From a virus, in the IMG/VR virus record IMGVR_UViG_3300045988_141143: a DNA stretch of 64,000 bases; one strand, given 5' to 3'. Numbering within the stretch: the stretch's first letter is position 1; each line of letters begins with the position of its first letter. Positions 40,195 to 63,976 of the stretch are shown piece by piece. Made by a program: the position numbers and the translations under genes. The notes below the pieces were generated by a model. It was not told the DNA's origin. It saw only the letters and a program-made list of their open reading frames with translations, and ran no database searches.

Positions 40195-41280
40195 TTAGCC
40201 ATAGATTTCCTGCATATCCTCCCTCGAAAGTGTTACCTTGGCTCTTTTGCAAAACATGAAAAAAGTATTTGCTCTTACTCTTTCGTATTTTCCGAATGAC
40301 TTCCAAGGAGCCACAAAGTCTGATTCACGGTGTCCGTGGTTGGCATCAAAGGGACGGAAACGAGAAACTCGCTTCCACATATCATAGCCTTCATTCGGAT
40401 CGATACTGTATAAAGACATTCCGCATTTAACCCAGTCATCATAGTTTTCCATAATGTCAACAGCATTCTGCTCTACCTTACGTACAAGGACACGCGCTTT
40501 GCGCAAGATGATGTCGGGTGTATCATTTTCCCAATCACCAGTATAACCCGACCTCTGACCTGACGACGTATTTTCGTAATGCGTAGCAACTTTAGTTACA
40601 GGAATTAGCGATGGCAACACAGCCATATCTTCCAGTCCCTTATACGGCACCACATTTTCATTGATATATATATGTTCGGGATCGTCCCAGGAGGCGAAGC
40701 GCACACGACCGATGTTGCTGCAAGCCTTGTCGAGCATGATGCCGATAGCGGCATATTCTTTGAGCAGAGCTTTGAACTGGTCTTTGTGTCTTTCGGGATA
40801 GGCCAGACGAACCAGACCGAAATAACCAGTACCAGAGCAAGACCGCATCATTAATCCTATCTCAGGACGAAAACGGGCAAGCTTAAATATACTTTCAAAA
40901 TCAGTTATCTGAAGATTGTCCTGCAGATCAATGTCGATGGCGAGCCAGCCCGTGTGCTGTTTCAGGTGGCTCTCTCGTCGGCTCACCATGACACGCTGCC
41001 CTGGATGCGTCAGACTGTCATCTTCATAGAGAGCGAACAAGCCGCTAAGAGTGGCACCAGGTAACATCTTCTTGGTATTGATGTACTCAGGCATTTTCTT
41101 TGCCTTGCTGCCAAATTCCTGACGCATAGCACGAAGACGCTGCACATACGGCTTCCATCTATCCGTAAGACAGAACTCGCGGATGGTCATCTGCTGAATG
41201 CACTCACCCGTCTCGCGGTCTACGAAACGGCCATAAGCATCTTGGGCAGACTCATAAATAGAGCAAACTTCGTCAAACAT
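40195..41280 (-). CDS. VirE/BT4734-type N-terminal domain protein (replication/primase-associated candidate)
   Basis: GWLAIDIDLQ, SCSGTGYFGLVRL and ACSNIGRVRFASWD resemble conserved blocks of Bacteroidota VirE_N-type proteins. Recognition is from memory only. Confidence 0.4.
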   Translation of the reverse strand: MFDEVCSIYESAQDAYGRFVDRETGECIQQMTIREFCLTDRWKPYVQRLRAMRQEFGSKAKKMPEYINTKKMLPGATLSGLFALYEDDSLTHPGQRVMVSRRESHLKQHTGWLAIDIDLQDNLQITDFESIFKLARFRPEIGLMMRSCSGTGYFGLVRLAYPERHKDQFKALLKEYAAIGIMLDKACSNIGRVRFASWDDPEHIYINENVVPYKGLEDMAVLPSLIPVTKVATHYENTSSGQRSGYTGDWENDTPDIILRKARVLVRKVEQNAVDIMENYDDWVKCGMSLYSIDPNEGYDMWKRVSRFRPFDANHGHRESDFVAPWKSFGKYERVRANTFFMFCKRAKVTLSREDMQEIYG

Positions 41281-42199: not shown

Positions 42200-45100
42200 T
42201 TAGCCCTTGCCTTTCATAAACTGGTTGGCTTTTGTCATGCTGTCATAAAGATTACCACGGCCATACATGTCTATCTTTGCGTAGATAGGTTCATTCAGTC
42301 GGTCGAGGAGGGTCTTGACGGCTTGCATGAGAGCGGCTTGGCTGGCTGTGTTGTTAGCGATTACATTGTTGGCCGCTGGTGCGCCCAACAGAAGATTACC
42401 ATTTTCTGCTGTAAAGCCCGCTGCTGCGTCCCCCATTGCGCTCGCAAGCTCGCCGACATTACCATTGTCAAATGCGCGTCTTGCTGCACGTCTGCCTGAA
42501 TAGTTGCTGTCGTAGTTGACGAGAGCCTTGAGGAGTGCCGGATTGTTCATCATCATGGCGTGTGTCGTCTCACGACCGATTACTATCTCGGGTCCATTCT
42601 CTGCTACAAGAGAAGGCTGGCCATTGATGGTAGTAGCCCTTGGAGTAGTTATCATTTGCACGCCAGTTTTTTGCCTGCCGTCATCCTCTGTTGCCCAATA
42701 AATATCACCATTGTCGGCTACAAATGGCTTCAGGTCTTGCACGTTACCGCTGTCATACGTAAGCATACCTGAAACGAGCTTCGTGTTTTTAGATACAGAA
42801 GAAGATTTCTTACTGCTGCTGCTGAAAGCCGAATTAAGTGCCCACTGAAGCAAGCCCATCAGAGTAGCCATCACTCCTGCTGCAGCAATAGGACCAGCAA
42901 TAGGACCTAAGAACTCAAAACACTTCGCCATTGCTCCCGCGATAGAGAATGTCACCTCTTGGTCGGTGCGGGCCGCGTCCGAGTTTGCCACATCCTGATT
43001 GTTCTGTTCTTTAGCTGCAAGATTGGTGGTCATAGCCGTCTGGGTCATATCAAGAATGGCATTCTGCGCTATCTCCGTACTCTTACTTTGCTCTTTATTG
43101 CCGGCATCGGTGATGTCAGTTATATTCTTGACACCTTGATGGGTTTCTTTCTCTCTATCCTTAGCTCCCTTTTTAACCTCTTTGCTGAGTTCTTTTTGAT
43201 GCTTCCTTTCTTTCTTGAGCTGCTTGGCTTTTTCCTTGTCGTCTCCAGTTTTCTTTGAAGAACCGCCAAGAGTGAAATTGGTATTCATCAAGTCACCCAC
43301 AAGGCTGCCTCCGATACCGGCTACGGCATCGGACAGAGTAGTACCACCTGTAATAGCACCAGCAACGGCTGTTCCCGCTTGAGAGGCTGTATCAATACCG
43401 TAAGTCTCCTTGTTATAATCATGGATAGTACCGTTTGGATGACGTTTCTTCCATGCAGCAGGAGGCTCAGTATTTGCAAGATTGTTGCCGTTGGCATCAA
43501 TATACTGACCTCCTACGACACGTACCCACATCGGGTTTTCAGCCGTGCCCAGGTTACGCCAATCCATATCAATGGTAGTAGCATTAGCATTAGCATTGGC
43601 TCTCGCTGCATCAATGCCAGGCTGTGCGTTTTTCTTGCCTTGTTTCGCTCCGGCATCATTGATGGCTTTCCACATTTGGGTGTTCACGTCATTTAGCGCC
43701 ATATTAGCCCACGACTCAATCATAGACTTCAGGGCATTCTTGATGCTCTCCTGTGCGCTTGATACGTCAGACTCCATCATGGCGAAAGCCTTGCCTACCT
43801 CTGCACCGAAGGTTTCAATAGGCTGTACGAGCTGCTGCATCTGCGAAAGGCGGTTCTTCATCGCCGTCGCCATTTGGTTGGCATAAGCAAGTTCGGCCTC
43901 CTGGCGAGCCTTATCCGCCTCGTCTACCAACTGCTTGTTACGAGAGTTCTTCAGACAGAAGGCATAGTAATCTTCTGCCAGCTGCATCTTCAGCTTCAGT
44001 AGTTCTACCTCTGGGTCAGCGGTAAGGTCGGCAAGACCGAGGTTGGAAAGAAGGTTGGTCCGCTTGCCGAAGAGAGAACTTTCCTGCTGCATCTTGCGCA
44101 GCTTTGCCTGCTGATCGAGATTGCGTTTGTTGTTTTTCCAAAGAAAATCAGAAATCTTCTTGGCTTCATCGTATTCTTTTTTCTGTGCAGCTGTATATTC
44201 ATCAACATATTGGATAAGCTTGTGATAGAATAGCTTTACATTCTGCTCAGTCTCGCCCATCAACGCAAGAAAGACAGAAGGCATCTGCATATAGTCTTTT
44301 CCAAATAAGAACTGAAGCAGCTTCTGCTTCTCCCCGTTTGTCTCAAAAAGTGCCGCCATTTGTGTGCGAGCCTTTTCCAAAACTTTTATAACATCAGCCC
44401 TATCTTTATTTAGCGTTTCAAGCGAAACGTCTGCAAAACGAGAATTTATTAATCCCAAGAAAGAATTTTGTTGAACTATGCCTGTGTAATCATGTTCAAG
44501 TAGCTCCTTCCGACGTTGCTCTATGCGTTTTTGAATCACATTGCTTGAATCGTTCTCTTTTGATGAAGCATTCAGCCACATTCGGTCAAGATAAGCACGG
44601 TCGCGTTCATCTGATTTATATCCGACAACTTGCCCTTTCTTAATTTTAGGCATTTGCTTTAATAAATCAGAACGAAGTTGTGCTACATTAGTATTCAATA
44701 TGGCATCCTCAAGCATACGAGACTGAGATTGTCCAAACTCATCGTCTTTTTCCTTGCGATATTTGTCTATTGATTTTTTAAATTTATCCCAAGTTTTATT
44801 TCCAAAGACAATAGACTGCTGCGCAGCTGCAAGGGCAGCATCCATTTGTATTTGAATGTCATTAACTGCCTGTTCTTGTAATTCTTTCTCTACACCCTTC
44901 TTTGAAAGATCCTCAACAGTAGCTGTCATTTGGCGCTTATAGAAATTCTTTATCTTCGTAATAAACTCAGATATGTTGTTGCGAGCATCATCTTCAGGAG
45001 TAGTTGTGTTACCTCCACCACCGTTGCCGCCATAAACTTTTTGACCTACAGCCATTCCATCTCCTACATCAAGTTTAGCCCCAAACTTTTTCCGTAAGGC

Positions 45101-48100
45101 TTCTTCTTGTGCGTTTATTTCATCCAGTCTTGACTGAGCCTTATCTCGCTCGCGTTTCGCAGCCGCACGTTGTCCTGCCTGTCCGATTGCACCCTGTGCC
45201 TGCCCTGGCATCATAGCACCACCAGAGGTCTGAATATATCTTCCATTAGGAGCGTTCACGTGTGTATTTGCATACGCATCTTCTTTTTTCTGCAAATCAA
45301 GAATAGCATCCACTTTCTCACGACCCAATTCTGCCAACTTAGAACGAGCGCCCTCAAGTTCGTAGTAATCTTGTAGACGTTGAAAGTTTTTCTCCCATGC
45401 CTTAGTGTTTTCCTTAACAACACCCGTCTCTGTGTTAATTTTAGCGTTGAGGTTAGGAATAGCGCCATTCAATTTATTCATAGCTTCGAGGCGAAGATTC
45501 ATTGACGCAGAAGTATCGTGCATAACATTATGCAGACGCTTCAACGATTCTTGTTCCTCCATAGCCTTACGCTTACCTTCTTCTTGTACTTCGTTAAGCA
45601 CGCGCTGTCCTGCGGATAAACCGTTCAAAGAGGAAGAATATTCGGCAAGTTTTACGACCAATATACCCAATAATCCAATTAATCCTCCCATAATACCCGC
45701 CTGCTTGGCAAACGACAAGCCATTAAATGCAGCTTTAGTTTTGGCAACAACAGCCCCCAGAGACAACATACCTCCCTCTAATCCCTGAACATAAGTAAGC
45801 AGTTTTGCAAAGCCACCCGCTAATCCTGCCATACTAATCATGGTGATCAACGTAGGAAGTATGCTCAGTAGCATCTTTATAGAGGCAAAGAGCAGCGCTA
45901 ACGCTACACGAACCTCTGTCATAAAACTCATACTGGTTGTAAGTTCCTTTACAACTTCAAACCAAGCTTTTGCTATATCACGAATAGGTCCCGAAGCCGC
46001 ACTTGAAGAAACAAACTGTTTTTCAAGAAGGTTGTTAGCCCTCTCCATATACGCGGCTGCAGTTTCCTGCTGCATATTATACTCAACCGTAACAGCAGAA
46101 CCTTCATTAAAAGCTTTATTAGACTCCTTTACCGCTTTAGTAAGCATACCATTCTTGGCAGCCATTGTTACCATAGTTTTTACCAAACGAGCGCCATCTG
46201 AGCCTAAGTCCTTAAATAAGCCATCAAGAGCAAAAAGGTTTTTAGTTTCGCCCATTCTGCGGAAAATGGTTAAGATTGCATCCATACCTCTTCCACTCTC
46301 GATCATCTTCTTCAAAGAACCAGAAGCTATACCGAGTGATTTTTCAATAGGGCTTGTACCTTTACGAAGCTCTACAACCAACTTTCCAAAAGCTGTTGCT
46401 GCAACTTCTGGCTCAAGGGCCATTGAGTCAACAGCCGCACCAAGAGCCAAAATATCTGGGGTTGTTAAAGCCGCCTGTTCGCCCAATGCAAGCATACGAT
46501 TAGAGAAATCCACAATCTTTCCGCTTGTCGCTGTAGATGTAGATGCCAGTCGGAAAATCGCAGAGCCTGTTTTCAGCATAGCCTGCTCCACTCCATATTT
46601 ATCCGCAAGACCCATCACCTCAGTAATCTTAGCAAGAGCCGTCAACGCTTCATCGCCCAAATCCTCTTTCAATGCGACGTTCACCTGGTCTGCGGCACGG
46701 ACGAAGCCAGCTAAATTTTGAGTTGTAACACCAAGTTTAGCTCCCGCATAGGCCAAGTTGTTCAGTTCTTCTATGCTTGTACGGGTATCGATTTTAGCAA
46801 GTTCCTTTGATAAATTTGCTACTTCGTCAGTTGTAGATAAAGCGACCTTACGAATATTAGTAAGCTGTTCGCTATACTTCATATTAAGACGAAACAAATC
46901 CATAAAGTACGTTTTAAGCTGATTGAACATCGCAAACAATCCGACATAAGCCGTGAGGTTCTTCAGTGCTGTCTGCCATGCGCTGCCATGCTTGTTGGCC
47001 GCACCCGTCGCCTCGTCGATGTTCTTCTTCAGCTCCTTCATCGACTTCTGCTTGTCGGCAAACTCCTTACTCTTGGTATTGATTTGGTTCAGTTCCTCTT
47101 CGAGTTGCTTGTAGGCACGGCGCAGTTCGTCGAGGGAGGCCTTACCCTGCTTGCTACGGGCGAGAATGTCGTTAAGGGCACTCTGCGACATACGGGTCCC
47201 CTTGAGGGTCTGTTCGAGCATGGAGTATTGGCGACGGAGGTCGGCCACATACTTGCTGCCAGCAGGGAGTTGCTGAATCTTCTGCTGTATCACTTCCATC
47301 GTGCGCTTGATGTCTTCGCCCGAAGCCTTGTTAGGTTCAGCCAATACCTGCTTCATCTGCTTCCAGCTCATTGATGCTTTCTGAGTCTTACCCGACACAG
47401 CCTCCAGCCGCTTCTCTATCTCCTGGAGCTCGCTGTTGTATTTTGCAATATCAGCCGAATTGCCTGTAGGTGTGTTGTCGCGAGCCTCAGTAAGCGTAGA
47501 CTTGGCTCGGCGCAAATCAGATGCTGAAGCGTTTTGACTGGTTACAGTCTGATGTGCCTCTGCCACGCCCATTTTGCCCTTGCGTCTGTCCTCCTCGGCT
47601 TCAAGTTGCTTCAATGTGGCGAGATTCTGCTGATAGGACGCATCCGATTTTTGCAGCGAACCTACGAGGTCACGCTGTTGTTTGATGGCCTTGTCGAGCC
47701 ATTGATCGGATTGGTTCTTTACATTATTCAAGCCATCGGCTATCTTGACATACTGACCTTCAATAAGGCGCATTTGATCGCCCACTTGCTTCATCTCGCT
47801 TCGTATCTGCTCTGCCTTCTTCAGGTCGGCATCCGAGCCGGTGAGCTTAGCAAGAGCCGACTTGCCCGAACCCATAGCACGACGCAGGTCACGAAGCTTA
47901 GTGTTGGTGAGGTCTTGCACCACCTCGCTCAATCGCTTCGTGTCCTCGATATTGTCACGCTGCACTTGCGACAACGCCTTCAATGTGCTCTCTGCCCTCT
48001 TACACTCAGCAGTGTTAGCCTGTCCTGCGGCAGTCATCTTCTGGATGTCGGCAGTATATTTCTGCACAAGATTGTCAATCTCTTCCAACACCTTCTTGGC

Positions 48101-48151
48101 TGTAGAGGCATTGGCCGTGATTACTACTTTTGCTAATTTTTGTGTTGCCAT
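42200..48151 (-). CDS. Tail tape measure protein (1983 aa)
   Basis: Extreme length, long Ala/Lys/Gln/Glu-rich coiled-coil segments, and a central hydrophobic/glycine-rich block (GLAGGFAKLLTYVQGLEGGMLSLGAVVAKT...). Confidence 0.8.
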   Translation of the reverse strand: MATQKLAKVVITANASTAKKVLEEIDNLVQKYTADIQKMTAAGQANTAECKRAESTLKALSQVQRDNIEDTKRLSEVVQDLTNTKLRDLRRAMGSGKSALAKLTGSDADLKKAEQIRSEMKQVGDQMRLIEGQYVKIADGLNNVKNQSDQWLDKAIKQQRDLVGSLQKSDASYQQNLATLKQLEAEEDRRKGKMGVAEAHQTVTSQNASASDLRRAKSTLTEARDNTPTGNSADIAKYNSELQEIEKRLEAVSGKTQKASMSWKQMKQVLAEPNKASGEDIKRTMEVIQQKIQQLPAGSKYVADLRRQYSMLEQTLKGTRMSQSALNDILARSKQGKASLDELRRAYKQLEEELNQINTKSKEFADKQKSMKELKKNIDEATGAANKHGSAWQTALKNLTAYVGLFAMFNQLKTYFMDLFRLNMKYSEQLTNIRKVALSTTDEVANLSKELAKIDTRTSIEELNNLAYAGAKLGVTTQNLAGFVRAADQVNVALKEDLGDEALTALAKITEVMGLADKYGVEQAMLKTGSAIFRLASTSTATSGKIVDFSNRMLALGEQAALTTPDILALGAAVDSMALEPEVAATAFGKLVVELRKGTSPIEKSLGIASGSLKKMIESGRGMDAILTIFRRMGETKNLFALDGLFKDLGSDGARLVKTMVTMAAKNGMLTKAVKESNKAFNEGSAVTVEYNMQQETAAAYMERANNLLEKQFVSSSAASGPIRDIAKAWFEVVKELTTSMSFMTEVRVALALLFASIKMLLSILPTLITMISMAGLAGGFAKLLTYVQGLEGGMLSLGAVVAKTKAAFNGLSFAKQAGIMGGLIGLLGILVVKLAEYSSSLNGLSAGQRVLNEVQEEGKRKAMEEQESLKRLHNVMHDTSASMNLRLEAMNKLNGAIPNLNAKINTETGVVKENTKAWEKNFQRLQDYYELEGARSKLAELGREKVDAILDLQKKEDAYANTHVNAPNGRYIQTSGGAMMPGQAQGAIGQAGQRAAAKRERDKAQSRLDEINAQEEALRKKFGAKLDVGDGMAVGQKVYGGNGGGGNTTTPEDDARNNISEFITKIKNFYKRQMTATVEDLSKKGVEKELQEQAVNDIQIQMDAALAAAQQSIVFGNKTWDKFKKSIDKYRKEKDDEFGQSQSRMLEDAILNTNVAQLRSDLLKQMPKIKKGQVVGYKSDERDRAYLDRMWLNASSKENDSSNVIQKRIEQRRKELLEHDYTGIVQQNSFLGLINSRFADVSLETLNKDRADVIKVLEKARTQMAALFETNGEKQKLLQFLFGKDYMQMPSVFLALMGETEQNVKLFYHKLIQYVDEYTAAQKKEYDEAKKISDFLWKNNKRNLDQQAKLRKMQQESSLFGKRTNLLSNLGLADLTADPEVELLKLKMQLAEDYYAFCLKNSRNKQLVDEADKARQEAELAYANQMATAMKNRLSQMQQLVQPIETFGAEVGKAFAMMESDVSSAQESIKNALKSMIESWANMALNDVNTQMWKAINDAGAKQGKKNAQPGIDAARANANANATTIDMDWRNLGTAENPMWVRVVGGQYIDANGNNLANTEPPAAWKKRHPNGTIHDYNKETYGIDTASQAGTAVAGAITGGTTLSDAVAGIGGSLVGDLMNTNFTLGGSSKKTGDDKEKAKQLKKERKHQKELSKEVKKGAKDREKETHQGVKNITDITDAGNKEQSKSTEIAQNAILDMTQTAMTTNLAAKEQNNQDVANSDAARTDQEVTFSIAGAMAKCFEFLGPIAGPIAAAGVMATLMGLLQWALNSAFSSSSKKSSSVSKNTKLVSGMLTYDSGNVQDLKPFVADNGDIYWATEDDGRQKTGVQMITTPRATTINGQPSLVAENGPEIVIGRETTHAMMMNNPALLKALVNYDSNYSGRRAARRAFDNGNVGELASAMGDAAAGFTAENGNLLLGAPAANNVIANNTASQAALMQAVKTLLDRLNEPIYAKIDMYGRGNLYDSMTKANQFMKGKG

Positions 48152-49367: not shown

Positions 49368-49898
49368 CTATTCGGGGTCGGGGGATTTTTCTTTATTCAT
49401 CTCCTCATCATCCCGCATGAGTTCCTTCAACTTGATATTGAAATGTCGCTCGGTCTTGTCGGCTACTATCTTCTGCATCACTCTCGCCCATCCTGCTCCG
49501 TTGCAGGTGCTTTCGTTCTCAAGGATGCTGACGAACTGGACTCCGCAGTAAAGGGCGGCGAGATAGTTGGCGAGGTGGAGCGGATTCATATAGTCGAGTA
49601 CGATGGTGTCGATGGCGGTGGCGAGGAAAATGGCGAGGATGAGGACGGAGAAGTCCTGCACCATCTTGGTCATCTTCTTGGATTTCAGTTTGCCGTCCAT
49701 CTGGCATTTGGGGTTCTTCTTGATGGCCTCACGATACCGGCTGTAGATACGGCGGTTGAGCCGCCATGCCGTGTAGCAATCCAGTAGAAGGGCGAAGAAG
49801 CATACACCGATGTAGTTGAGTGAGGGTTCGATGTAGCACCACAGCAGACCTATTGCGGCTGCTATGAATCGGGTAATGTTGGGTAAGATCGTTTGCAT
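49368..49898 (-). CDS. Holin-family membrane protein (toxin secretion/phage lysis holin type)
   Basis: LLLDCYTAWRL and YCGVQFVSILENESTCNG resemble the LDxxTG ... E-x-x-SI-x-EN blocks of that holin family. Three to four TM segments. Confidence 0.5.
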   Translation of the reverse strand: MQTILPNITRFIAAAIGLLWCYIEPSLNYIGVCFFALLLDCYTAWRLNRRIYSRYREAIKKNPKCQMDGKLKSKKMTKMVQDFSVLILAIFLATAIDTIVLDYMNPLHLANYLAALYCGVQFVSILENESTCNGAGWARVMQKIVADKTERHFNIKLKELMRDDEEMNKEKSPDPE

Positions 49899-51193: not shown

Positions 51194-52044
51194 ATGTTAA
51201 ACGAACAACTGCAGAAAAAGGTAAAACAGTCGATAAAACTCCTGCAGAGTGTGCAGAAGCGATACGACGGCGAGATAGAGATAGCCTACTCGGGCGGTAA
51301 GGACTCCGACGTGATCCTTCAGCTGGCGAAAGAGGCAGGCATCAAGTATCGGGCCATATACAAGAATACGACCATCGACCCGCCAGGCACGTTGGGGCAC
51401 GTCAGAGAAATGGGAGTGGAGATACTGCGGGCCAAGACATCCTTCTTTCATCTCGTGGCACAGAAAGGATTTCCATCTCGCTTTACTCGTTTCTGTTGTG
51501 AAGAACTGAAGGAATACAAGGTGCTCAACAAAAGTATTATCGGCGTGCGCAAGGCTGAGAGCCGGAAACGAAACGAAAGATACAACGAGCCGACAGAGTG
51601 CCGATACTTCGGAAAGAAGAAAGAGGAAAATCACGTAGAACAGATTTATCCTATTCTGGAATGGACCGATGAGGACGTGCGTGACTTCATCATAGACAGA
51701 AAGTTGAAACTCGCACCCATTTATTACAATTCGGGGGGCAAATCGACGTGTCGAAACGTCTTGGCTGTATGTGCTGTCCTCTTGCCTCAAGGCGCAAGCG
51801 CATTATCGAGTTTCAGAAATATCCCAAGATAGCAAAGGCTTATCTCCGTGCGGGGCAACGATTTATGGAAACGCATCCTGACAGCAAGGCGTGCCAGAGG
51901 TACGACAATGTTTACGAATGGTTCGTTCGCGACGTATTTTACAGCTCCAATGCAGATTGGAGCAAGGTAAGCACAGGGCTGTTCGGTAAGCCGGACTTCA
52001 AGAAATTCTTGGAGGACAAGTTCGGTATTGACTTGACATTATAA
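51194..52044 (+). CDS. PAPS-reductase-family (adenine nucleotide alpha-hydrolase) protein, split at a G6 tract as assembled
   Basis: The SGGKDS PP-loop lies in ORF 51194..51832. The family-typical C-terminal RLGCMCCP lies in ORF 51748..52044 (-1 frame). Seven G at 51733-51738 would fuse them as ...YYNSGGQIDVSKRLGCMCCP.... Confidence 0.7.
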
Positions 52045-58409: not shown

Positions 58410-59048
58410 TCACTCATCGGCGGGAAAGCTGATCTTTGCATCTGCCAGTCTTTTCTTGCAGATCACACCAAGGCCTTCAATGACACCCAAACATGAGCTA
58501 CAATCCAAACAGTAAGCATAGCCAATCATGGCGCTAACGGTATTGTATGGGCATTTCTCCCCCTTTATCGCATAAAGGTGTTTGTCCTCCATAAAGGCGT
58601 GGATTTCTTTTTTTAACCCATTCAGTATTTTGTTCTCTCTTTCCAGCTCGTCGCAATGGTCGCGCATCTGCTGCATCTCAACAAGCGACTGCCTTGACTC
58701 GCGCTCCTCCTTACTGCCCAACTGGTGAGCGACATCGTTGTAATCATCCGTGAGCTTATGCACAAGCTGCTCAAGTTCTCCGTTCTTTCTTTCCAGCTCA
58801 TCACAATGGTCGCGCATCTTCATCATCTCGCCAAGCGTCTGCTTGGAAGAGTTTTCATCCTTGCGTGCCTCCAGTCCATGCTGTTGGCGCACGGCATCGT
58901 TGTAATCGTCCATGAGCTGATGCACACGTTGCGTCATCTCAATGTTCTCTGCCTTCAAGTCGGCTACGATATAGGAAAGAGCCAACATACGTTTGTTTTC
59001 TTCTGTTGTCATTGTTTCTTGGGTTTTATGTTTGTTATTCATATTCAT
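58410..59048 (-). CDS. Coiled-coil protein with an internal ~50-aa duplication and Cys-rich C-terminus
   Basis: VHQLMDDYNDAVRQQ...MRDHCDELERKNGEL repeats as VHKLTDDYNDVAHQL...MRDHCDELERENKIL. The C-terminus is CPYN...CLDCSSC. Confidence 0.5.
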   Translation of the reverse strand: MNMNNKHKTQETMTTEENKRMLALSYIVADLKAENIEMTQRVHQLMDDYNDAVRQQHGLEARKDENSSKQTLGEMMKMRDHCDELERKNGELEQLVHKLTDDYNDVAHQLGSKEERESRQSLVEMQQMRDHCDELERENKILNGLKKEIHAFMEDKHLYAIKGEKCPYNTVSAMIGYAYCLDCSSCLGVIEGLGVICKKRLADAKISFPADE

Positions 59049-59214
59049 ATACTATATGCGATGTGGTATTGCCCAGTCCGTCGCGAGGGTCGGTAATACC
59101 TATCCCGACCATTGTCGTCACGGCATTGGCTATCTGCTTGCGCGGTCGACTCTTTACGAGGCCCTTGCCGTCCTTGCCGCTGCGTACCCAACCGATGTAA
59201 TACTTGTCAATCAT
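59035..59214 (-). CDS. Mini-cistron h (59 aa), TRD-like with an IVYEYE* end
   Basis: Translated by hand: MIDKYYIGWVRSGKDGKGLVKSRPRKQIANAVTTMVGIGITDPRDGLGNTTSHIVYEYE*. Its ATG overlaps the upstream stop (ATGATTGA) and its end overlaps the next ATG. Confidence 0.35.
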   Translation of the reverse strand: MIDKYYIGWVRSGKDGKGLVKSRPRKQIANAVTTMVGIGITDPRDGLGNTTSHIVYEYE

Positions 59215-60019
59215 CGGTCTGTGGTATGGTCAGATACATTCGTTCATTAGCCTTGCACGACTCCCCTTGCATTCTACCTGCCTCTAACCCTGCTTTCTTT
59301 AGAGCTTCGTCACGCTCATGCTCCAGTTTTATGCAATATTCAGTCAGGCGATTATATTCTTTCTGCAAGGCGTTGAAATCCTCGCGCAGTTGCTCGGGAG
59401 TGTGAGTTTCTGAATCTAATGGCACAAGACGCTGCTTTCTCTTGTCCCATATTTTCCCGATTCTCTCCACGGCATTGTTGAGAAGTTTTTCTTCCGTAGG
59501 CGTGGCGTATCTCAGTTCGATGCTTACTTCTTCTGCGCATGTACCGAGAAGATCAAGATGGACGTTAGGAGTAAGTTCGTCGCTGTTTTTGCACAAGCAG
59601 GCGTATGTTCTTATCTTGGGATAAGAATCTATAAAATCCACTTCATTGAAAATCACAATGTAGGTCAGGATGTTGCCATCTTTATTTTTAATATCCATTG
59701 CCACGATGTCGCCGGGCTGGAAGTTGAGCACATTCCAATGCCGGTAAAGATGCGAGAGAAACAGCATACACTCTCCTTTTTCAAAGTTCGCTAAACGCCC
59801 ATTGCAACGAAAAAGAATGTAGTGTGCTTCATCCTCGTCAGGAATGGAGGGACCCACCAAAATACCCGAAGCGTTTGTTTCTTTCACATTCAGATAGCCA
59901 AACAAAGGTGAGTAAAGCGTGTCACCTTCAGTCAAGCCGTAGAGGAAGGCTGCCATTTTTTCAATCTCGAATAATTTAGCTTTTATCTCAGGGATGCTTC
60001 TTGTTGCTTTTTGTTTCAT
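59207..60019 (-). CDS. Hypothetical protein (270 aa)
   Basis: ORF with an ATG start. Preceded by the conserved 38-nt junction/uORF block. Confidence 0.45.
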   Translation of the reverse strand: MKQKATRSIPEIKAKLFEIEKMAAFLYGLTEGDTLYSPLFGYLNVKETNASGILVGPSIPDEDEAHYILFRCNGRLANFEKGECMLFLSHLYRHWNVLNFQPGDIVAMDIKNKDGNILTYIVIFNEVDFIDSYPKIRTYACLCKNSDELTPNVHLDLLGTCAEEVSIELRYATPTEEKLLNNAVERIGKIWDKRKQRLVPLDSETHTPEQLREDFNALQKEYNRLTEYCIKLEHERDEALKKAGLEAGRMQGESCKANERMYLTIPQTDD

Positions 60020-60072
60020 AATGTCTCTATTTTAAATTATCACTCATATTCTATCTTGTGATGTTATTCATA

Positions 60073-60363
60073 TTACCCTTTTTCTACTAATTCCCAGGTC
60101 TTTTCATCGTGAGAGGAATAGACGGTATAGGTAAGTTCACAACAGTTCTTGGCTGTCCTCACTTCATGCAACATTTCTCTCGTATAGAAGCAACGCTCCA
60201 TAAGGTACGCCAATGCCTTAAACTGGTCTTGAGTAAGAAAGACCTCCTGCTCGCCGCAAGTGATACCAACATTATCAGTAATGGTAGAATAGAAGAGCTT
60301 TACGTCCTCTTCCTTCCCTGTGTCCTCGTTCTTTACGATTATCTTTTCTGTATTGAAACTCAT
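60073..60363 (-). CDS. Hypothetical protein (96 aa)
   Basis: ORF with an ATG start. Confidence 0.4.
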   Translation of the reverse strand: MSFNTEKIIVKNEDTGKEEDVKLFYSTITDNVGITCGEQEVFLTQDQFKALAYLMERCFYTREMLHEVRTAKNCCELTYTVYSSHDEKTWELVEKG

Positions 60364-60503
60364 AATTTATTTCTCCTTTTATAATTCAACAAACACGCAA
60401 ATTCCACCACTTGCAGCGATCAGTGCGTTTACAAGCTTACTCCCATCCTCGCCATTCGAGCCGATGGCTAACGGGATGCACGGAAATGTAGATGTGGGTC
60501 ATG

Positions 60504-60965
60504 TTACTCTTGAAGATACTCGCCGTATAGTTTCCACTCCTTATCATGGATGTTGCCGACAACCTCAAAGCTCTTCATCTTCTCTTGCAAGAGATCATCT
60601 GGGATGCCGTCTTCAAGACCACCTACGTCAGAGTAGGGATTTTTTACCGTAACGATACCAAAGCAAGCTTTCTTCTCACAATAATACACTACGGCATAGT
60701 AGTCGTCGCAAGTATTGTATTCGATTCTGCTATACGGATATTCGTTCGATCGCAATACGTCGCCTTCATAAATCTCCTTGCCGTTCTTGTCGGTGAAGCC
60801 AGTGAACTGGCATACAGTAGAGGGGTCAACAGCAAACGTAAAAACAGGCCGTCCATCACTGACTGGATTATTTTTTACGAGAGTCTGGTCACCCACATGG
60901 GACAAATCGCCGTAATTCCACTTCCCGTCCTCTATACTCTTAGCCTTAAACTTAATTGTTCTCAT
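60504..60965 (-). CDS. YopX-family protein
   Basis: MRTIKFKAKSIEDGKWNYGD... and C-terminal FEVVGNIHDKEW match the YopX pattern (M-R-x-I-K-F-R-A-W ... V-I-G-N-I-H/Y-D/E-N). Confidence 0.65.
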   Translation of the reverse strand: MRTIKFKAKSIEDGKWNYGDLSHVGDQTLVKNNPVSDGRPVFTFAVDPSTVCQFTGFTDKNGKEIYEGDVLRSNEYPYSRIEYNTCDDYYAVVYYCEKKACFGIVTVKNPYSDVGGLEDGIPDDLLQEKMKSFEVVGNIHDKEWKLYGEYLQE

Positions 60966-60984
60966 AATTCTCTATTTTAAATTG

Positions 60985-61133
60985 TTACTCATATTCTATC
61001 AATACAATGGTGTGCTGTCCGTGCTCGTCGTAGAGTCCTGCCATCCGTCGTAGCGGGCGGACAATGCCGTGGAATACCCCCGACGAGGGCAAAGCTGGGA
61101 TGTGCGTAACACGAAAGGAATTTGGTTACACAT
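60985..61133 (-). CDS. Mini-cistron d (about 49 aa), TRD-like, frame-disrupted as assembled
   Basis: ATG inside the TATGTGTAA junction gives MCNQIPFVLRTSQLCPRRGYSTALSARYDGWQ. The continuation GLYDEHGQHTIVLIEYE* is in the -1 frame. Span is 149 nt (2 mod 3); the break is near 61035-61041. Confidence 0.35.
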
Positions 61134-61296
61134 AATCGGGATTGAAAAATATGCCATTTACACCTTCAATATCGATGGTGTTTCTGTTACAGTCAAAATC
61201 AGCATCACAAAACTCGTCGCCATTGACTGTTACTTCCAATTCGCCATGTTCTTTACGCAAAAGTTCAAGGCGGTTTATAAGTTCGCTTATATTCAT
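61126..61296 (-). CDS. Small ORF (56 aa), not TRD-like
   Basis: Translated by hand: MNISELINRLELLRKEHGELEVTVNGDEFCDADFDCNRNTIDIEGVNGIFFNPDYV*. Below the ORF-track length cut-off. Confidence 0.35.
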   Translation of the reverse strand: MNISELINRLELLRKEHGELEVTVNGDEFCDADFDCNRNTIDIEGVNGIFFNPDYV

Positions 61297-61306
61297 ATTA
61301 TTTTCT

Positions 61307-61480
61307 TTACAAATATTCTATCAATGCCATATTATCCTTGCCTACTGACGTAAGGGTGTTGGTTGTACTTCCCCCGTTTATCTCCATTCGCTGACAGAAG
61401 CGTCCGTTGGAGGGATGCTTGCGGTCGGACGGATTGTCGGGGTCACGGCCTCGGAAGGCTGCTATGCGAAAGTGTAGCAT
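61307..61480 (-). CDS. Mini-cistron c (57 aa), RGR-type TRD-like
   Basis: MLHFRIAAFRGRDPDNPSDRKHPSNGRFCQRMEINGGSTTNTLTSVGKDNMALIEYL*. This is part of ORF track 61307..61564. Confidence 0.45.
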   Translation of the reverse strand: MLHFRIAAFRGRDPDNPSDRKHPSNGRFCQRMEINGGSTTNTLTSVGKDNMALIEYL

Positions 61481-61644
61481 AGGAGGTTGTCTTTTGTTAC
61501 TGTTGTTATCGAATTGCTCCACGCCCACGGACTTGGGCGGTGATACTTGTCGCTGTATTTGCACCCTCCCCGGTCGCCATGTTCACGACGGAAGGTTTTG
61601 GCTTCCTCGGTGCGGTAGTGGACGAGGACGGAACGATTAATCAT
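61462..61644 (-). CDS. Mini-cistron A (60 aa), RTEEAK-type TRD-like
   Basis: MINRSVLVHYRTEEAKTFRREHGDRGGCKYSDKYHRPSPWAWSNSITTVTKDNLLCYTFA*. Confidence 0.45.
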   Translation of the reverse strand: MINRSVLVHYRTEEAKTFRREHGDRGGCKYSDKYHRPSPWAWSNSITTVTKDNLLCYTFA

Positions 61645-61789
61645 ACTCTATCAATATTTTCGGTTTATCCACGTCGTGACCTTTACCTCCCCCGGCTATG
61701 CACAAGGCTATGCCGCGCGGCGACACGATGATGCCGTTCTGCGAGGGGCTGTAGGAGCCGAGGATGATGGGGCGAGGGTTGTTATTCAT
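61637..61789 (-). CDS. Mini-cistron e (50 aa), HhaI-type TRD-like
   Basis: Translated by hand: MNNNPRPIILGSYSPSQNGIIVSPRGIALCIAGGGKGHDVDKPKILIEYD*. Compare M.HhaI QGERIYSTRGIAITLSAYGGGIFAKTGGYLV. Confidence 0.5.
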   Translation of the reverse strand: MNNNPRPIILGSYSPSQNGIIVSPRGIALCIAGGGKGHDVDKPKILIEYD

Positions 61790-61928
61790 ATATTACAATT
61801 ACGCCAGTGGCTTTGAAATTTGCTCCTTGGGTTGAAACGTCAAGAACATCGTATGCACCCTTCTTGAAATAATTGGCTTTGATAGTGCGTGATGTGCCAT
61901 CGGATTCGGTGTTGAAAGGGAATGTCAT
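61782..61928 (-). CDS. Mini-cistron g (48 aa), TRD-like
   Basis: Translated by hand: MTFPFNTESDGTSRTIKANYFKKGAYDVLDVSTQGANFKATGVIVIYE*. ATGA overlap with mini-cistron f. Confidence 0.4.
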   Translation of the reverse strand: MTFPFNTESDGTSRTIKANYFKKGAYDVLDVSTQGANFKATGVIVIYE

Positions 61929-62066
61929 AATTCTACTGCTACAAAGAACACGTCGCTGCAATCGGTGCGCGACATGATAGTTACTGCTATACCGTGAAAT
62001 GCTCCGTTGAAGCGTTCTGCGCTGAACATCGAGGCAGGGCAGGTGAGCAAACTACCCCCCAATCAT
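61925..62066 (-). CDS. Mini-cistron f (about 46 aa), TRD-like, with a G6 tract after the ATG
   Basis: ATGATTGGGGGGTAG: the ATG frame stops after the G6 run (62055-62060). The frame from the TTG at 62062 reads LGGSLLTCPASMFSAERFNGAFHGIAVTIMSRTDCSDVFFVAVEL*. G5 or G8 would put the ATG in frame. Confidence 0.4.
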
Positions 62067-62103
62067 ATCAGCTATGATACGGATTACACGGTCGGGTGGA
62101 TTA

Positions 62104-63419
62104 TCAGTTCTCATTCTTCCTCTCCATATTCTCCTTGAACATTTCTCCGAAACCATCCCAATAATGAGCGTCCATCCATTCGGGCGAGGATAAAAACTGC
62201 TCATACATCATTGTCGCAGGTATCGTCCGTAGGTATTTCTCGCAAGCCTTAACGTCTTTGTCCCACAAATCCATCCGCTCCATTTCTATCTGAAAATACG
62301 TCTTGAGGAACATTGCCGCCTCATGTGTCGGTGGCAGGTCGAATTGAAGGAATAAGGCATTGTCGGAGTCGTTTGCCTTGAGGAACTTGCTCACGGCATC
62401 GTCCTTGAGGAAATAGCGGTCAGACACTTCCTCTTCGAGCACGTCTTCCAATCGGGTAAGCAGCTCGAAAGGTTCTGGGAACTGATAGTCGAATGCCACG
62501 TCTCGGCGCATGGAGAGGCAGAACACACGGTCGCGGTTTTGTGGCACACCGTAGTTCTTGGCGTTGAGTCGCGTCCAACGGCTCACATAGCCGAGCGACG
62601 AGAGTTTGTCGAGCCACTTCTGAAAGTCTGGCAAGAACTTCTGGCTTACCAGTGCCGCCACGTTCTCCTGCAAGAGATACTTCGGGCGAAGCACCTCCAC
62701 AGCATCCGCCACACGCCAAAGCAGTGCGCTTCGGGTGTCGCTGCCCTCCTGCAAGCCCATTTGCTTGCCCGCCTGACTGATGTCCTGGCAAGGCGAGGAA
62801 TAGGTGAAGAGGTCTACTTCGCGGCCTTCGAGCGAGCTTTCCACCTCGTGCCAGTCAATCTTGGTGATGTCGCCCAGGGCGCAGTCGGCAAACTGAGGGA
62901 AGACGAGGTTGTGCATCTGACAGGCGTATTTGTCGATGTCGCTCCATCCTATACATGTCCATCGGAAGTCGGGATGCCACTCGCGGAGCACATCGGCTGC
63001 CATAAGCTGCGAGTCGTAGCCGAAGAACGTGGTAAGGAATATCTTCTCCTCGTTCTTGTTGGCTGCGGTGGGCGGCAGGGCGGGTAATGTGTCTTCGAGG
63101 TCGTCGAAGAGCGAGAGTTGCTTTTGCTTACGAGGTTTGGGCGTAGGATAGAAAAGTTGCTCGTAGATGTGGGCCAACACGTCCACCACGATGCTGTTTC
63201 CGGCTTGCTTGTACTGCTGTGAGGCAGATATAGCCATGTCTTCGGGCTTGCCCTTGCCTTTCCAGTCGGGCAGACGTTCGGCTGCTTGAGCATTGCTGCT
63301 CTGCATCGTGCCGATTACATTGTCACGAACGCCATCAGACGAAAACACTCCTTGGGTGTGAGCTTGCGGATGGCATAGCTCTTGATGGTGCGGTCGGTGA
63401 AATTGAGTTTTGTAATCAT
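62104..63419 (-). CDS. C5-cytosine DNA methyltransferase core, circularly permuted (motifs IX-X-I-IV-VI-VIII), one frame break as assembled
   Basis: AIRKLTPKECFRLMG (IX), QYKQAGNSIVVDVL (X), FLTTFFGYDSQ (I-like), FTYSSPCQDIS (IV), LLQENV (VI), GVPQNRDRVF (VIII). The 34-codon ORF from the ATG at 63419 joins ORF 62104..63348 if one base is added near 63330-63335. Confidence 0.8.
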
Positions 63420-63432
63420 ATTGTTGCTGTTA

Positions 63433-63585
63433 TTATTCGTATTCTATTAAAATTCCTGGAGCATGATTATCTGCCTTGACGCATCTATTTATTCCTTCTA
63501 ACGGAGGTCTTTTATAGTCAGGCGAAACATTCCAATAAATGCTCGATATTGCATGAGCGTGATAGTCTATTGTGATGTTATTCAT
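63433..63585 (-). CDS. Mini-cistron 3 (50 aa), TRD-like
   Basis: Translated by hand: MNNITIDYHAHAISSIYWNVSPDYKRPPLEGINRCVKADNHAPGILIEYE*. Ends 13 nt before the MTase core ATG. Confidence 0.4.
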   Translation of the reverse strand: MNNITIDYHAHAISSIYWNVSPDYKRPPLEGINRCVKADNHAPGILIEYE

Positions 63586-63709
63586 ATTCTTCAATCAAAA
63601 ATACATTTTGCTGCCACGAGTTGATTGTTACGGTCGGGCAAACGTCTGTACCTAATCGACCTCCATCGTTATTGCCACGAGGATATTGGTAGAAGTCAAG
63701 ATTAATCAT
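63578..63709 (-). CDS. Mini-cistron 2 (43 aa), TRD-like
   Basis: Translated by hand: MINLDFYQYPRGNNDGGRLGTDVCPTVTINSWQQNVFLIEEYE*. Bracketed by 19-nt identical direct repeats. Confidence 0.45.
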   Translation of the reverse strand: MINLDFYQYPRGNNDGGRLGTDVCPTVTINSWQQNVFLIEEYE

Positions 63710-63718
63710 ATTCTTCAA

Positions 63719-63976
63719 TCAAAAGAACGCTTCAGATTGCAAGTCGCCAATATAACAATAACGCTGCACTTCGTATTCGCTGATAAACATTCGCCAATTC
63801 TGTTCGTCATGATCGAAATGTTCATGTACGAAGCATGTACCACCGAGTCGCCAACAGAGAAGCGATCCTATGCAATGCGGTTGTTCTCTGGCTGGATGCC
63901 ATAACTGAACGATATTACGATATTCGGCTCTTTTATCCGTTTCTACATCGTCAGACAAGGAATCCTTAAAGCTCAC
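63719..63976 (-). CDS. Hypothetical protein (about 85 aa)
   Basis: ORF track entry. The start is uncertain. Confidence 0.35.
   Translation of the reverse strand: MSFKDSLSDDVETDKRAEYRNIVQLWHPAREQPHCIGSLLCWRLGGTCFVHEHFDHDEQNWRMFISEYEVQRYCYIGDLQSEAFF

Follow-up and report, generated by a model that had tools for sequence, protein, structure and literature searches.

The window analysed here, the whole 64-kilobase (kb) stretch of viral DNA in IMG/VR record IMGVR_UViG_3300045988_141143, carries on its minus strand, where all features of the array lie, a circularly permuted C5-cytosine methyltransferase core flanked by nine small open reading frames (ORFs) of 43-63 codons, which we call minis. To judge from sequence comparison, at least six and arguably seven of the nine are homologous to single target-recognition domain (TRD) modules of fused multi-TRD methyltransferases. 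We think it probable that the locus encodes a multispecific methyltransferase with free-standing TRDs, subunits coupled in translation that bind one permuted core in trans. A first-pass annotation, made from the letters alone, had placed the core and nine mini-ORFs on one strand, and their positions were confirmed. A search with the core protein recovered 80 IMG/VR phage contigs of about 50-110 kb, 65-99% identical over the whole protein including its helical tail, and these together with the window make up the 81 loci compared below. The arrangement is widespread, and apparently undescribed.

The core (62104..63419) is, by its conserved motifs I, IV, VI, VIII, IX and X, a C5-cytosine methyltransferase of PF00145 (E = 1.3e-45 in a Pfam profile search, with motif IX on a small upstream ORF because the window ORF is broken), and it also matches M.HhaI and M.HaeIII. 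Its motifs run in the order MITKLNFTDRTIKSY stub, IX, X, Pro/Lys linker, I, IV (PCQ), VI (ENV), VIII (QNRDR) and helical tail. When aligned with M.MpeI (8c56/4dkj), core residues 198-347 correspond to chain residues 122-274 and core residues 15-50 to chain residues 333-368; since the two segments are swapped, the circular permutation proposed in the first-pass annotation is real. After motif VIII the chain runs through the usual YFLKDD..KFLK helix into a helical C-terminal domain of ~85 amino acids (aa); no TRD is present there, so the claim that the core lacks a TRD also stood. The likening to M.BssHII holds only roughly, in that motifs IX and X precede I-VIII and a covalent TRD before motif IX is absent: the core opens with MITKLNFTDRTIKSY-AIRKLTP, no locus has an in-frame TRD upstream of it, and a search for N-terminal TRD-core fusions across the loci found none. 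In the relatives the core starts at MITKLNFTDRTIKSYAIRKLTP (MITKLNF) and its ORF is uninterrupted. At 63028-63030 motif I of the window core reads TTFFGYDSQ, while at least 90% of the relatives have TTFSGYDSQ, a Ser-to-Phe change at a nearly invariant position.

The first 15 residues of the core (ITKLNF-TD-RTIKSY, then AIRKLTP; compare ..VLLKY-RIRKLTP of fused enzymes) look like a TRD module reduced to its N- and C-terminal strands, without the recognition loop. The linker, ..QLSLFDDL..EEKIFLTTFSGYDSQ, is also composite. Its first piece corresponds to the C-terminal tail of canonical and beta-type enzymes, ending in ..QLSLF(DDL), and its second to the N-terminus of canonical and alpha-type enzymes, beginning with MIKVFEAFAGYGSQ. 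Because a beta-type tail is here joined to an alpha-type start, the permuted core looks like the product of a head-to-tail gene fusion, beta to alpha. Bacillus phage Deep Blue (NC_031056; L081 1870-4819) has three adjacent genes annotated as methyltransferases, Blue_147, Blue_146 and Blue_145. One tblastn segment of the permuted core continues across the boundary between Blue_147 and Blue_146, leading out of motif X in the first and into motif I in the second, and such tandem genes are a possible precursor state of the permuted fusion.

The minis gave no match to Pfam. Their identity was established by comparison with fused multi-TRD relatives, which hold two to nine modules in tandem; these lie between motifs VIII and IX or, in beta-type subunits, at the start. 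Among these are P0122 (713 aa) and P0129 (618 aa), with canonical motif order, the beta-type subunits P0140 and P0151, and the split enzyme of Dulem virus 40, whose alpha subunit has motifs I-VIII and whose beta subunit has six fused TRD-like segments followed by motifs IX-X. Six minis (up1, up2, B, D, E and G) correspond to stretches within such proteins, with 41-57% identity or profile independent E values (iE) of 1e-7 to 1e-22. The 43-aa mini up1 (63578..63709; MINLDFYQYPRG...CPTVTINSWQQNVFLIEEYE; family 2), whose stop overlaps the ATG of up2, matches internal TRDs of Dulem beta and P0129 (profile iE ~2e-8). The 50-aa up2 (63433..63585; MNNITIDYH...GINRCVKADNHAPGILIEYE; family 6), separated from the core ATG by a 13-nucleotide (nt) spacer, matches embedded TRDs with profile iE of 1e-13 to 3e-8 and is 48% identical to Dulem beta residues 201-225. 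Mini B (61782..61928; 48 aa; ...DGTSRTIKANYFKKG...ATGVIVIYE), which starts over the stop of A (ATGA), is 56% identical over 45 aa to P0122 residues 395-439 (profile iE 5e-12). Mini D (61462..61644; 60 aa; MINRSVLVHYRTEEAKTFRREHGD...SNSITTVTKDNLLCYTFA; family 3) has profile iE of 4e-14 to 1e-6 against embedded TRDs.

The strongest case is mini E (61307..61480; 57 aa; MLHFRIAAFRGRDPDNPSDR...TNTLTSVGKDNMALIEYL), which is 50-57% identical to fused TRDs with profile iE down to 3e-22. A phmmer search with it against 1.84 billion representative proteins returned 291 clusters at E <= 1e-3, some free-standing (49-99 aa) and others embedded in longer proteins; P0146 (1711 aa) in this result was discarded as spurious, being a repetitive unrelated protein. 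Mini G (59035..59214; 59 aa; MIDKYYIGWVRSGKDGKG...IANAVTTMVG...HIVYEYE), whose stop overlaps the start of a 212-aa ORF, matches fused TRDs at profile iE 3e-7. The seventh case is mini C (61637..61789; 50 aa; MNNNPRPIILGSYSPSQNGIIVSPRGIALCIAGGGKGHDVDKPKILIEYD), with a borderline profile match (iE 8e-4) and a natural fusion to the core, P0123. The earlier description of all nine minis as TRD-like therefore holds by profile or BLAST for the six, for C by a borderline match plus the fusion, and for A and F by eye only. Mini A (61925..62114; MRTDNPPDRVIRIIADMIGGGSLL...GIAVTIMSRTDCSDVFFVAVEL; family 8) is 63 aa long in relatives and intact in L001, and its ATG at 62114 lies 8 nt ahead of the end of the core stop codon. 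Mini F (60985..61133; M..QIPFV.RTS.LCPRRGYSTALSARYDGWAGLYDEHGQHTIVLIEYE; family 1) is 49 aa long in relatives.

The split state is conserved far beyond the window. A single core-type ORF is present in 76 of the 81 loci, nearly always 430-470 aa long, and none of these 76 ORFs has a fused TRD. Around them lie about 760 mini-ORFs in more than 25 sequence families, with at most one copy of a family per locus (e.g. 64 members in 64 loci); family 2, to which up1 belongs, occurs in 54 loci and family 1, that of F, in 64. In the 80 relatives 759 of 10,319 ORFs on the gene strand have a mini-type ending, in relation to 13 of 12,526 on the opposite strand. Families are colinear between loci and differ in presence and absence even among close relatives, which is the cassette variation that the first-pass annotation had suggested looking for. 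Distant lineages, with minis only 48-60% identical, keep the same module boundaries and arrays beside the 3' end of a permuted core. Thousands of database proteins were returned by the core search as well, the best 120 of them 436-451 aa long, and more than 120 protein clusters of this length represent the core as a single ORF; core homologues are named only "cytosine-specific methyltransferase" and come from Caudoviricetes or Prevotella metagenome-assembled genomes (MAGs). The exact peptides of the window minis are public on up to 93 contigs (mini C on 93), independently called and always as "hypothetical protein". Megablast of the locus gave no match among 50,697 phage records, and no published description of free-standing TRD genes was found, within an incomplete coverage of the literature that was without REBASE.

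By the selection acting on them, the minis are translated as separate proteins. Among copies split at identical boundaries, the ratio of nonsynonymous to synonymous substitution rates (dN/dS) is 0.09-0.48 in frame for 16 families, with 0.6-2.2 for the +1 frame as control. For window minis the values are 0.21 (up1), 0.24 (up2), 0.17 (A), 0.20 (D), 0.16 (F) and 0.20 (G). Their ATG starts are selected as well. The penultimate Tyr codon of the minis is TAT in 463 of 534 cases (87%) and TAC in 71, while TAT makes up 56% of Tyr codons in long ORFs and 47% inside minis. As many as 392 of the 463 TAT codons create the ATG (TATGAnTAA) that opens the next ORF, and where no ORF follows the ratio TAT:TAC is 71:71. 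The conserved ..IEYE ending before the stop is, at the codon level, a dual-coded junction. The 9 nt upstream of the junction ATG are AT-biased as well, with Ile encoded by ATC in 6 of 155 cases (39% background) and Glu by GAA in 73% (49% background); this avoidance of G and C is consistent with the need for an unstructured, AT-rich initiation region. Taken together, the TAT bias and the AT-rich context mean that every junction has its start codon kept by selection, and so point to termination-reinitiation coupling.

The same junctions invite another explanation, that a frameshift or bypass at every one of them yields a long fused multi-TRD enzyme, as the first-pass annotation had suggested in its second variant. 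The junction is indeed highly conserved in DNA, and a +1 shift at ..GAA TAT GAA TAA C would enter the next module. However, its geometry varies: there are +1 overlaps, ATGA overlaps, a different frame at D/E, spacers of 13-40 nt and unrelated genes in between, so that no fixed frame geometry exists. The stops are TAA, TGA or TAG, the last sense codons are variable, and no conserved slippery site or heptamer was found at the junctions. Also, the excess of TAT over TAC is accounted for by the requirement for an ATG, which frameshifting would not need. We consider recoding very unlikely. Reassignment of stop codons was rejected too, since the window has no tRNA genes, and thus no suppressor tRNA in its support, and the ORFs are anyway in different frames.

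A core physically joined to a mini does exist in nature. G-type minis are fused to the C-terminus of the core in P0121, P0124-P0128, P0130 and P0136, and a C-type mini in P0123, whose locus retains further free minis. The fusion site lies after the helical tail and the mini keeps its own Met (..KENMERKS-MNNKYYIGW..); fused-core clusters hold up to 51 member sequences. Cassettes fused in tandem are rare, D with E (P0356) and family 11 with G (P0389). The loci L083-L085, with the fused core P0121, have one further mini followed by HU-like and LysR-type regulator genes, a neighborhood unlike that of the ~100-kb phages. In every lineage examined minis adjoin the core and are coupled to it.

A mechanism that would accommodate these observations is as follows. 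One polypeptide bears all ten catalytic and S-adenosylmethionine-binding motifs in the permuted order IX-X-linker-I..VIII-helical tail, with a loop-less stub (ITKLNF-TD-RTIKSY) left at the joint from TRD to motif IX. The specificity modules are encoded apart, as cistrons of 43-63 aa, each predicted to form an N-terminal beta-strand, a recognition loop with a T-[LIV]-T-like core and a C-terminal strand ending in ..h-h-E-Y-[ED]. Most cistrons begin at an ATG within the last codons of the preceding one (TATGAnTAA or ATGA), and because of these embedded ATGs the array is probably translated by termination-reinitiation coupling. A free TRD peptide would bind the core where a covalent TRD would sit, between motifs VIII and IX, every core-TRD pair would methylate one target sequence, and through the cassette set the phage DNA would be methylated in advance, as protection from many host restriction systems. 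Related phages differ by gain and loss of cassettes, probably via recombination at short conserved junctions. In their variable region C5 methyltransferases are known to permit both permutation and bisection (PMC5944983; PMC3404938). Of the two mechanisms put forward in the first-pass annotation, docking in trans is preferred on the indirect evidence of purifying selection on the split forms, the overlapping ATG starts and the core+TRD fusions; non-covalent assembly, activity, the number of specificities and the anti-restriction role are inferred. We lean slightly towards the broader view that the TRD peptides of ~45-60 aa are exchangeable specificity subunits of a Type II C5 methyltransferase, reshuffled in a "sigma-factor-like" manner, serving anti-restriction and widespread in gut (probably Prevotella) phages.

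Several observations weigh against this mechanism. We know of no precedent for three-part or TRD-only complementation. The match of mini A to TRDs is insignificant (best iE 0.2) and mini F has no significant match to fused TRDs. Mini G, like other minis, is preceded by unrelated genes, and its distance downstream is 1.8 kb from F and ~2.9 kb from the core. About 25% of the cassette copies that can be detected are incomplete or broken, evidence of turnover and of some decay. AlphaFold2 gave mean confidence (predicted local distance difference test, pLDDT) of 43.6 for the core with a 30-sequence alignment (A1), confident solely for the C-terminal helical domain, and 43.4 for the natural core+TRD fusion P0121 (alignment A2), so both models are unusable for docking geometry; all Foldseek matches of the core model to PDB had E > 1. 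M.SssI split experimentally in the distal variable region was inactive (PMC3404938). A point in favor of the mechanism is that no other C5-methyltransferase parts were found besides the array in the 64-kb window, the extent of the scaffold search; genomes of relatives are ~100 kb.

The window sequence itself probably contains errors, and it has to be asked whether the minis could be an artefact, in which case a corrected sequence would merge them into ordinary full-length genes. In relation to L001, the closest relative (99% identity in the core) and our reference for insertions and deletions, the core ORF is broken after CFRLM (CFRLM|GVRDN) by one missing G at ~63332, mini A is split by a G-run at 62055-62060 that is 2 nt shorter, and mini F, intact in L001, is split by one missing G near 61041. 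Two of these three frameshifts have the context GATGGGC -> GATGGC, and G/C runs of at least 7 are absent from the window and numerous in related loci. The simplest reading is that all three are probably homopolymer errors; the compression in the window assembly could possibly be due to long-read errors, or conceivably to modified sites. The first-pass annotation had the positions of the ORFs right and overlooked these frameshifts; A in fact starts at 62114, and F and the core are each split by a missing G. However, the three corrections make the core, A and F single ORFs and no mini becomes fused to anything, contrary to the merging that had been considered. In 80 contigs that were assembled independently, and in ENA, Logan, JGI and NCBI records, the stops and changes of frame are the same, and this recurrence on independently called contigs rules out an assembly artefact; we give it practically no credence. 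In a separate observation, the poly-G tract of mini A has 4, 6, 7, 8 or 9 residues across L001, L025, L031, L036, L056-L058 and L071, which puts the ORF in or out of frame. One specificity module could be switched on and off in this way by slipped-strand mispairing, or the variation could be sequencing noise.

The cassettes are evidently in flux. A 23-nt junction copy, TTTTGATTGAAGAATATGATTAA, lies just upstream of up1 at 63702..63724 on the minus strand and shares 96% identity with the copy in which up1 ends (63578-63600); with copies on both sides the up1 cassette is flanked by direct repeats. An empty junction at 60037..60075, where a cassette start (ATGAATAACATCACAA) is joined straight to a cassette end (GATAGAATATGAGTGA), is by its sequence the footprint of a deleted cassette. 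At 60379..60500 the head of a family-7 mini (MTHIYISVHPVSHRLEWRGWE, then a stop) and, after it, the tail of a family-5 TRD (...GSKLVNALIAASGGICVFVEL, then a stop) are left as cassette remnants. Direct repeats, empty junction, truncated cassettes and broken copies all fit recombinational gain and loss at the junctions, and cassettes are probably gained and lost by recombination at these sequences of 15-23 nt. An invertible, shufflon-type switch was rejected: the cassettes have a single orientation and no significant flanking inverted repeats, only short chance-like pairs being found in the region, where no search for a recombinase was made.

Such mobility could also be attributed to a silent reservoir, with the minis an archive recombined into a fused "expression" position and only the covalent fusions active. 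The short junction repeats, deletion footprints and extensive presence/absence mosaicism are in accordance with this, as are the natural core+G and core+C fusions and the rare tandem D-E and family 11-G fusions. Nevertheless, most phages would then be without an active enzyme, given the complete lack of fused TRDs among the 76 core-type ORFs, and a silent archive needs neither selected ATG starts nor an AT-rich start context; the uniform strand and the lack of significant inverted repeats (with the same limit on recombinases) also speak against it. We regard the reservoir as unlikely. Slightly less probable still is that the minis function with some other scaffold of phage or host, or modulate or block host methyltransferases or restriction enzymes. 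Selection and translation signals show function and leave the partner unspecified, and about 36 kb of genome lies beyond the window. However, in all lineages examined the minis are closely linked to the core and coupled to it in translation, they are fused to the same core and homologous to bona fide TRD modules, and the window has no second C5 scaffold.

The partial copies, the remnants in the window and several frameshifted members could finally be taken to mean that minis are functionless fragments of former multi-TRD methyltransferase genes in decay. This is hard to reconcile with dN/dS of 0.1-0.5, at synonymous divergence (pS) up to 0.6, among copies split at identical boundaries, with uniform lengths and one copy per family per genome, or with the persistence of the split form in lineages at ~50% identity, and we find it most improbable. 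Remnants of insertion-disrupted genes were ruled out as well, because no matching I-VIII or IX-X halves accompany the minis. Free-standing TRD subunits that act with the permuted core thus stay our preferred explanation.

The array is read in the 5'->3' order up1, up2, core, A, B, C, D, E, a 56-aa ORF, F, a YopX-family gene, the remnants, a 96-aa ORF, the empty junction, a 270-aa ORF, G and the 212-aa ORF. Small unrelated genes are hence interleaved among the TRD cassettes and have the same overlapping start/stop junctions. The unrelated 56-aa ORF (61126..61296) lies between E and F, and its stop is overlapped by the ATG of F. The YopX-family gene (60504..60965; PF09643, E = 2e-13) lies inside the array; L001 has a second YopX paralogue upstream of the array (2231-2722). 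The coiled-coil-like 212-aa ORF (58410..59048) starts at an ATG that overlaps with the end of G. It matched no Pfam family at the curated cut-off and contains an internal duplication, with repeats of 81 nt and 48 nt lying 150-162 nt apart at 78-81% identity. L001 also encodes, at 241-708, upstream of the array and outside the window, a 155-aa ORF (MKKRILDMCCGSRMFYFDK...FDPPH), a candidate small amino-methyltransferase.

The junction motif GAATATGARTAA, allowing one mismatch, has 9 matches in the whole window, where 0.6 would be expected. The minus strand has seven of them, all in 59035-63713, and the plus strand two, elsewhere; a genome-wide regulatory repeat was ruled out, as the motif is confined to the array locus. 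Similarly, of 82 gene-strand ORFs in the last 8 kb, 10 end in ..[IV]EY[ED] or ..VEL before the stop, while other 8-kb bins have 0-1 such ORFs. A scan for promoters and terminators gave nothing above chance. Elsewhere the window encodes a PAPS-reductase-domain protein (51194-51832, plus strand) and, on the minus strand, a holin (49368-49898), a primase-like protein with BT4734-like N-terminal and PriCT-2 domains (40195-41280) and a 1983-aa tape-measure protein (42200-48151). These genes, and the lack of tRNA genes, fit a tailed phage. Relatives were binned with Prevotella MAGs, and Prevotella is probably the host group of these gut phages.

If the proposed mechanism is true, the TRD modules of multispecific methyltransferases fold and dock as autonomous units, and there is a new DNA methyltransferase architecture with a specificity subunit of only ~50 aa. 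To our knowledge, the use of several tandem TRDs by one C5 catalytic domain has never been structurally explained, and separate TRD proteins would open this question to direct testing. They would also form a natural kit of swappable DNA-recognition modules for targeted methylation. The hypervariable block of "hypothetical" mini-genes in abundant gut phages would then be an anti-restriction repertoire tuned to host strains, and cassette differences among close phages a natural experiment tying module to motif.

An exchangeable specificity subunit on a constant catalytic core is known, by analogy only, from HsdS of Type I systems and from sigma factors, which are unrelated in sequence and fold; HsdS has two TRDs and works in a fixed M2S1 complex. 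For Type II C5 enzymes no description of such an arrangement was found in the literature searched. The multispecific C5 methyltransferases of the Bacillus phage SPR/phi3T/H2 type, like P0122, P0129 and Dulem beta, use one scaffold for several TRD modules of ~40-60 aa, as is proposed for the window, where nine distinct modules are linked to one core. These enzymes hold their TRDs as a tandem fusion between motifs VIII and IX of one chain, whereas in the window each TRD has its own cistron and the scaffold is permuted; tandem TRDs in a single polypeptide are not what the 81 loci have, since a TRD that ends at a stop, followed by a separate ATG for the next, is conserved throughout. The natural permuted enzymes M.BssHII, M.Alw26I, M2.Eco31I, M.Esp3I and M2.BsaI are of type H, with a covalent TRD before motif IX (PMC5944983). 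They resemble the window core in that IX-X precede I-VIII and the break lies in the variable region. The M.BssHII group, however, keeps its TRD before IX, while the window core begins past that position, the natural fusions have the TRD at the C-terminus (type J-like) and most cores of the window type carry no covalent TRD at all. In M.AquI and M.EcoHK31I the conserved motifs are shared out over two subunits, I-VIII and IX-X or IX alone (PMC3404938). These two enzymes and the alpha/beta pair of Dulem virus 40 consist of separately translated parts, split in or near the variable region and held together non-covalently, as is proposed for the window. Unlike M.AquI and M.EcoHK31I, the window locus has all conserved motifs on one chain, and its separate chains are TRDs only, in many versions.

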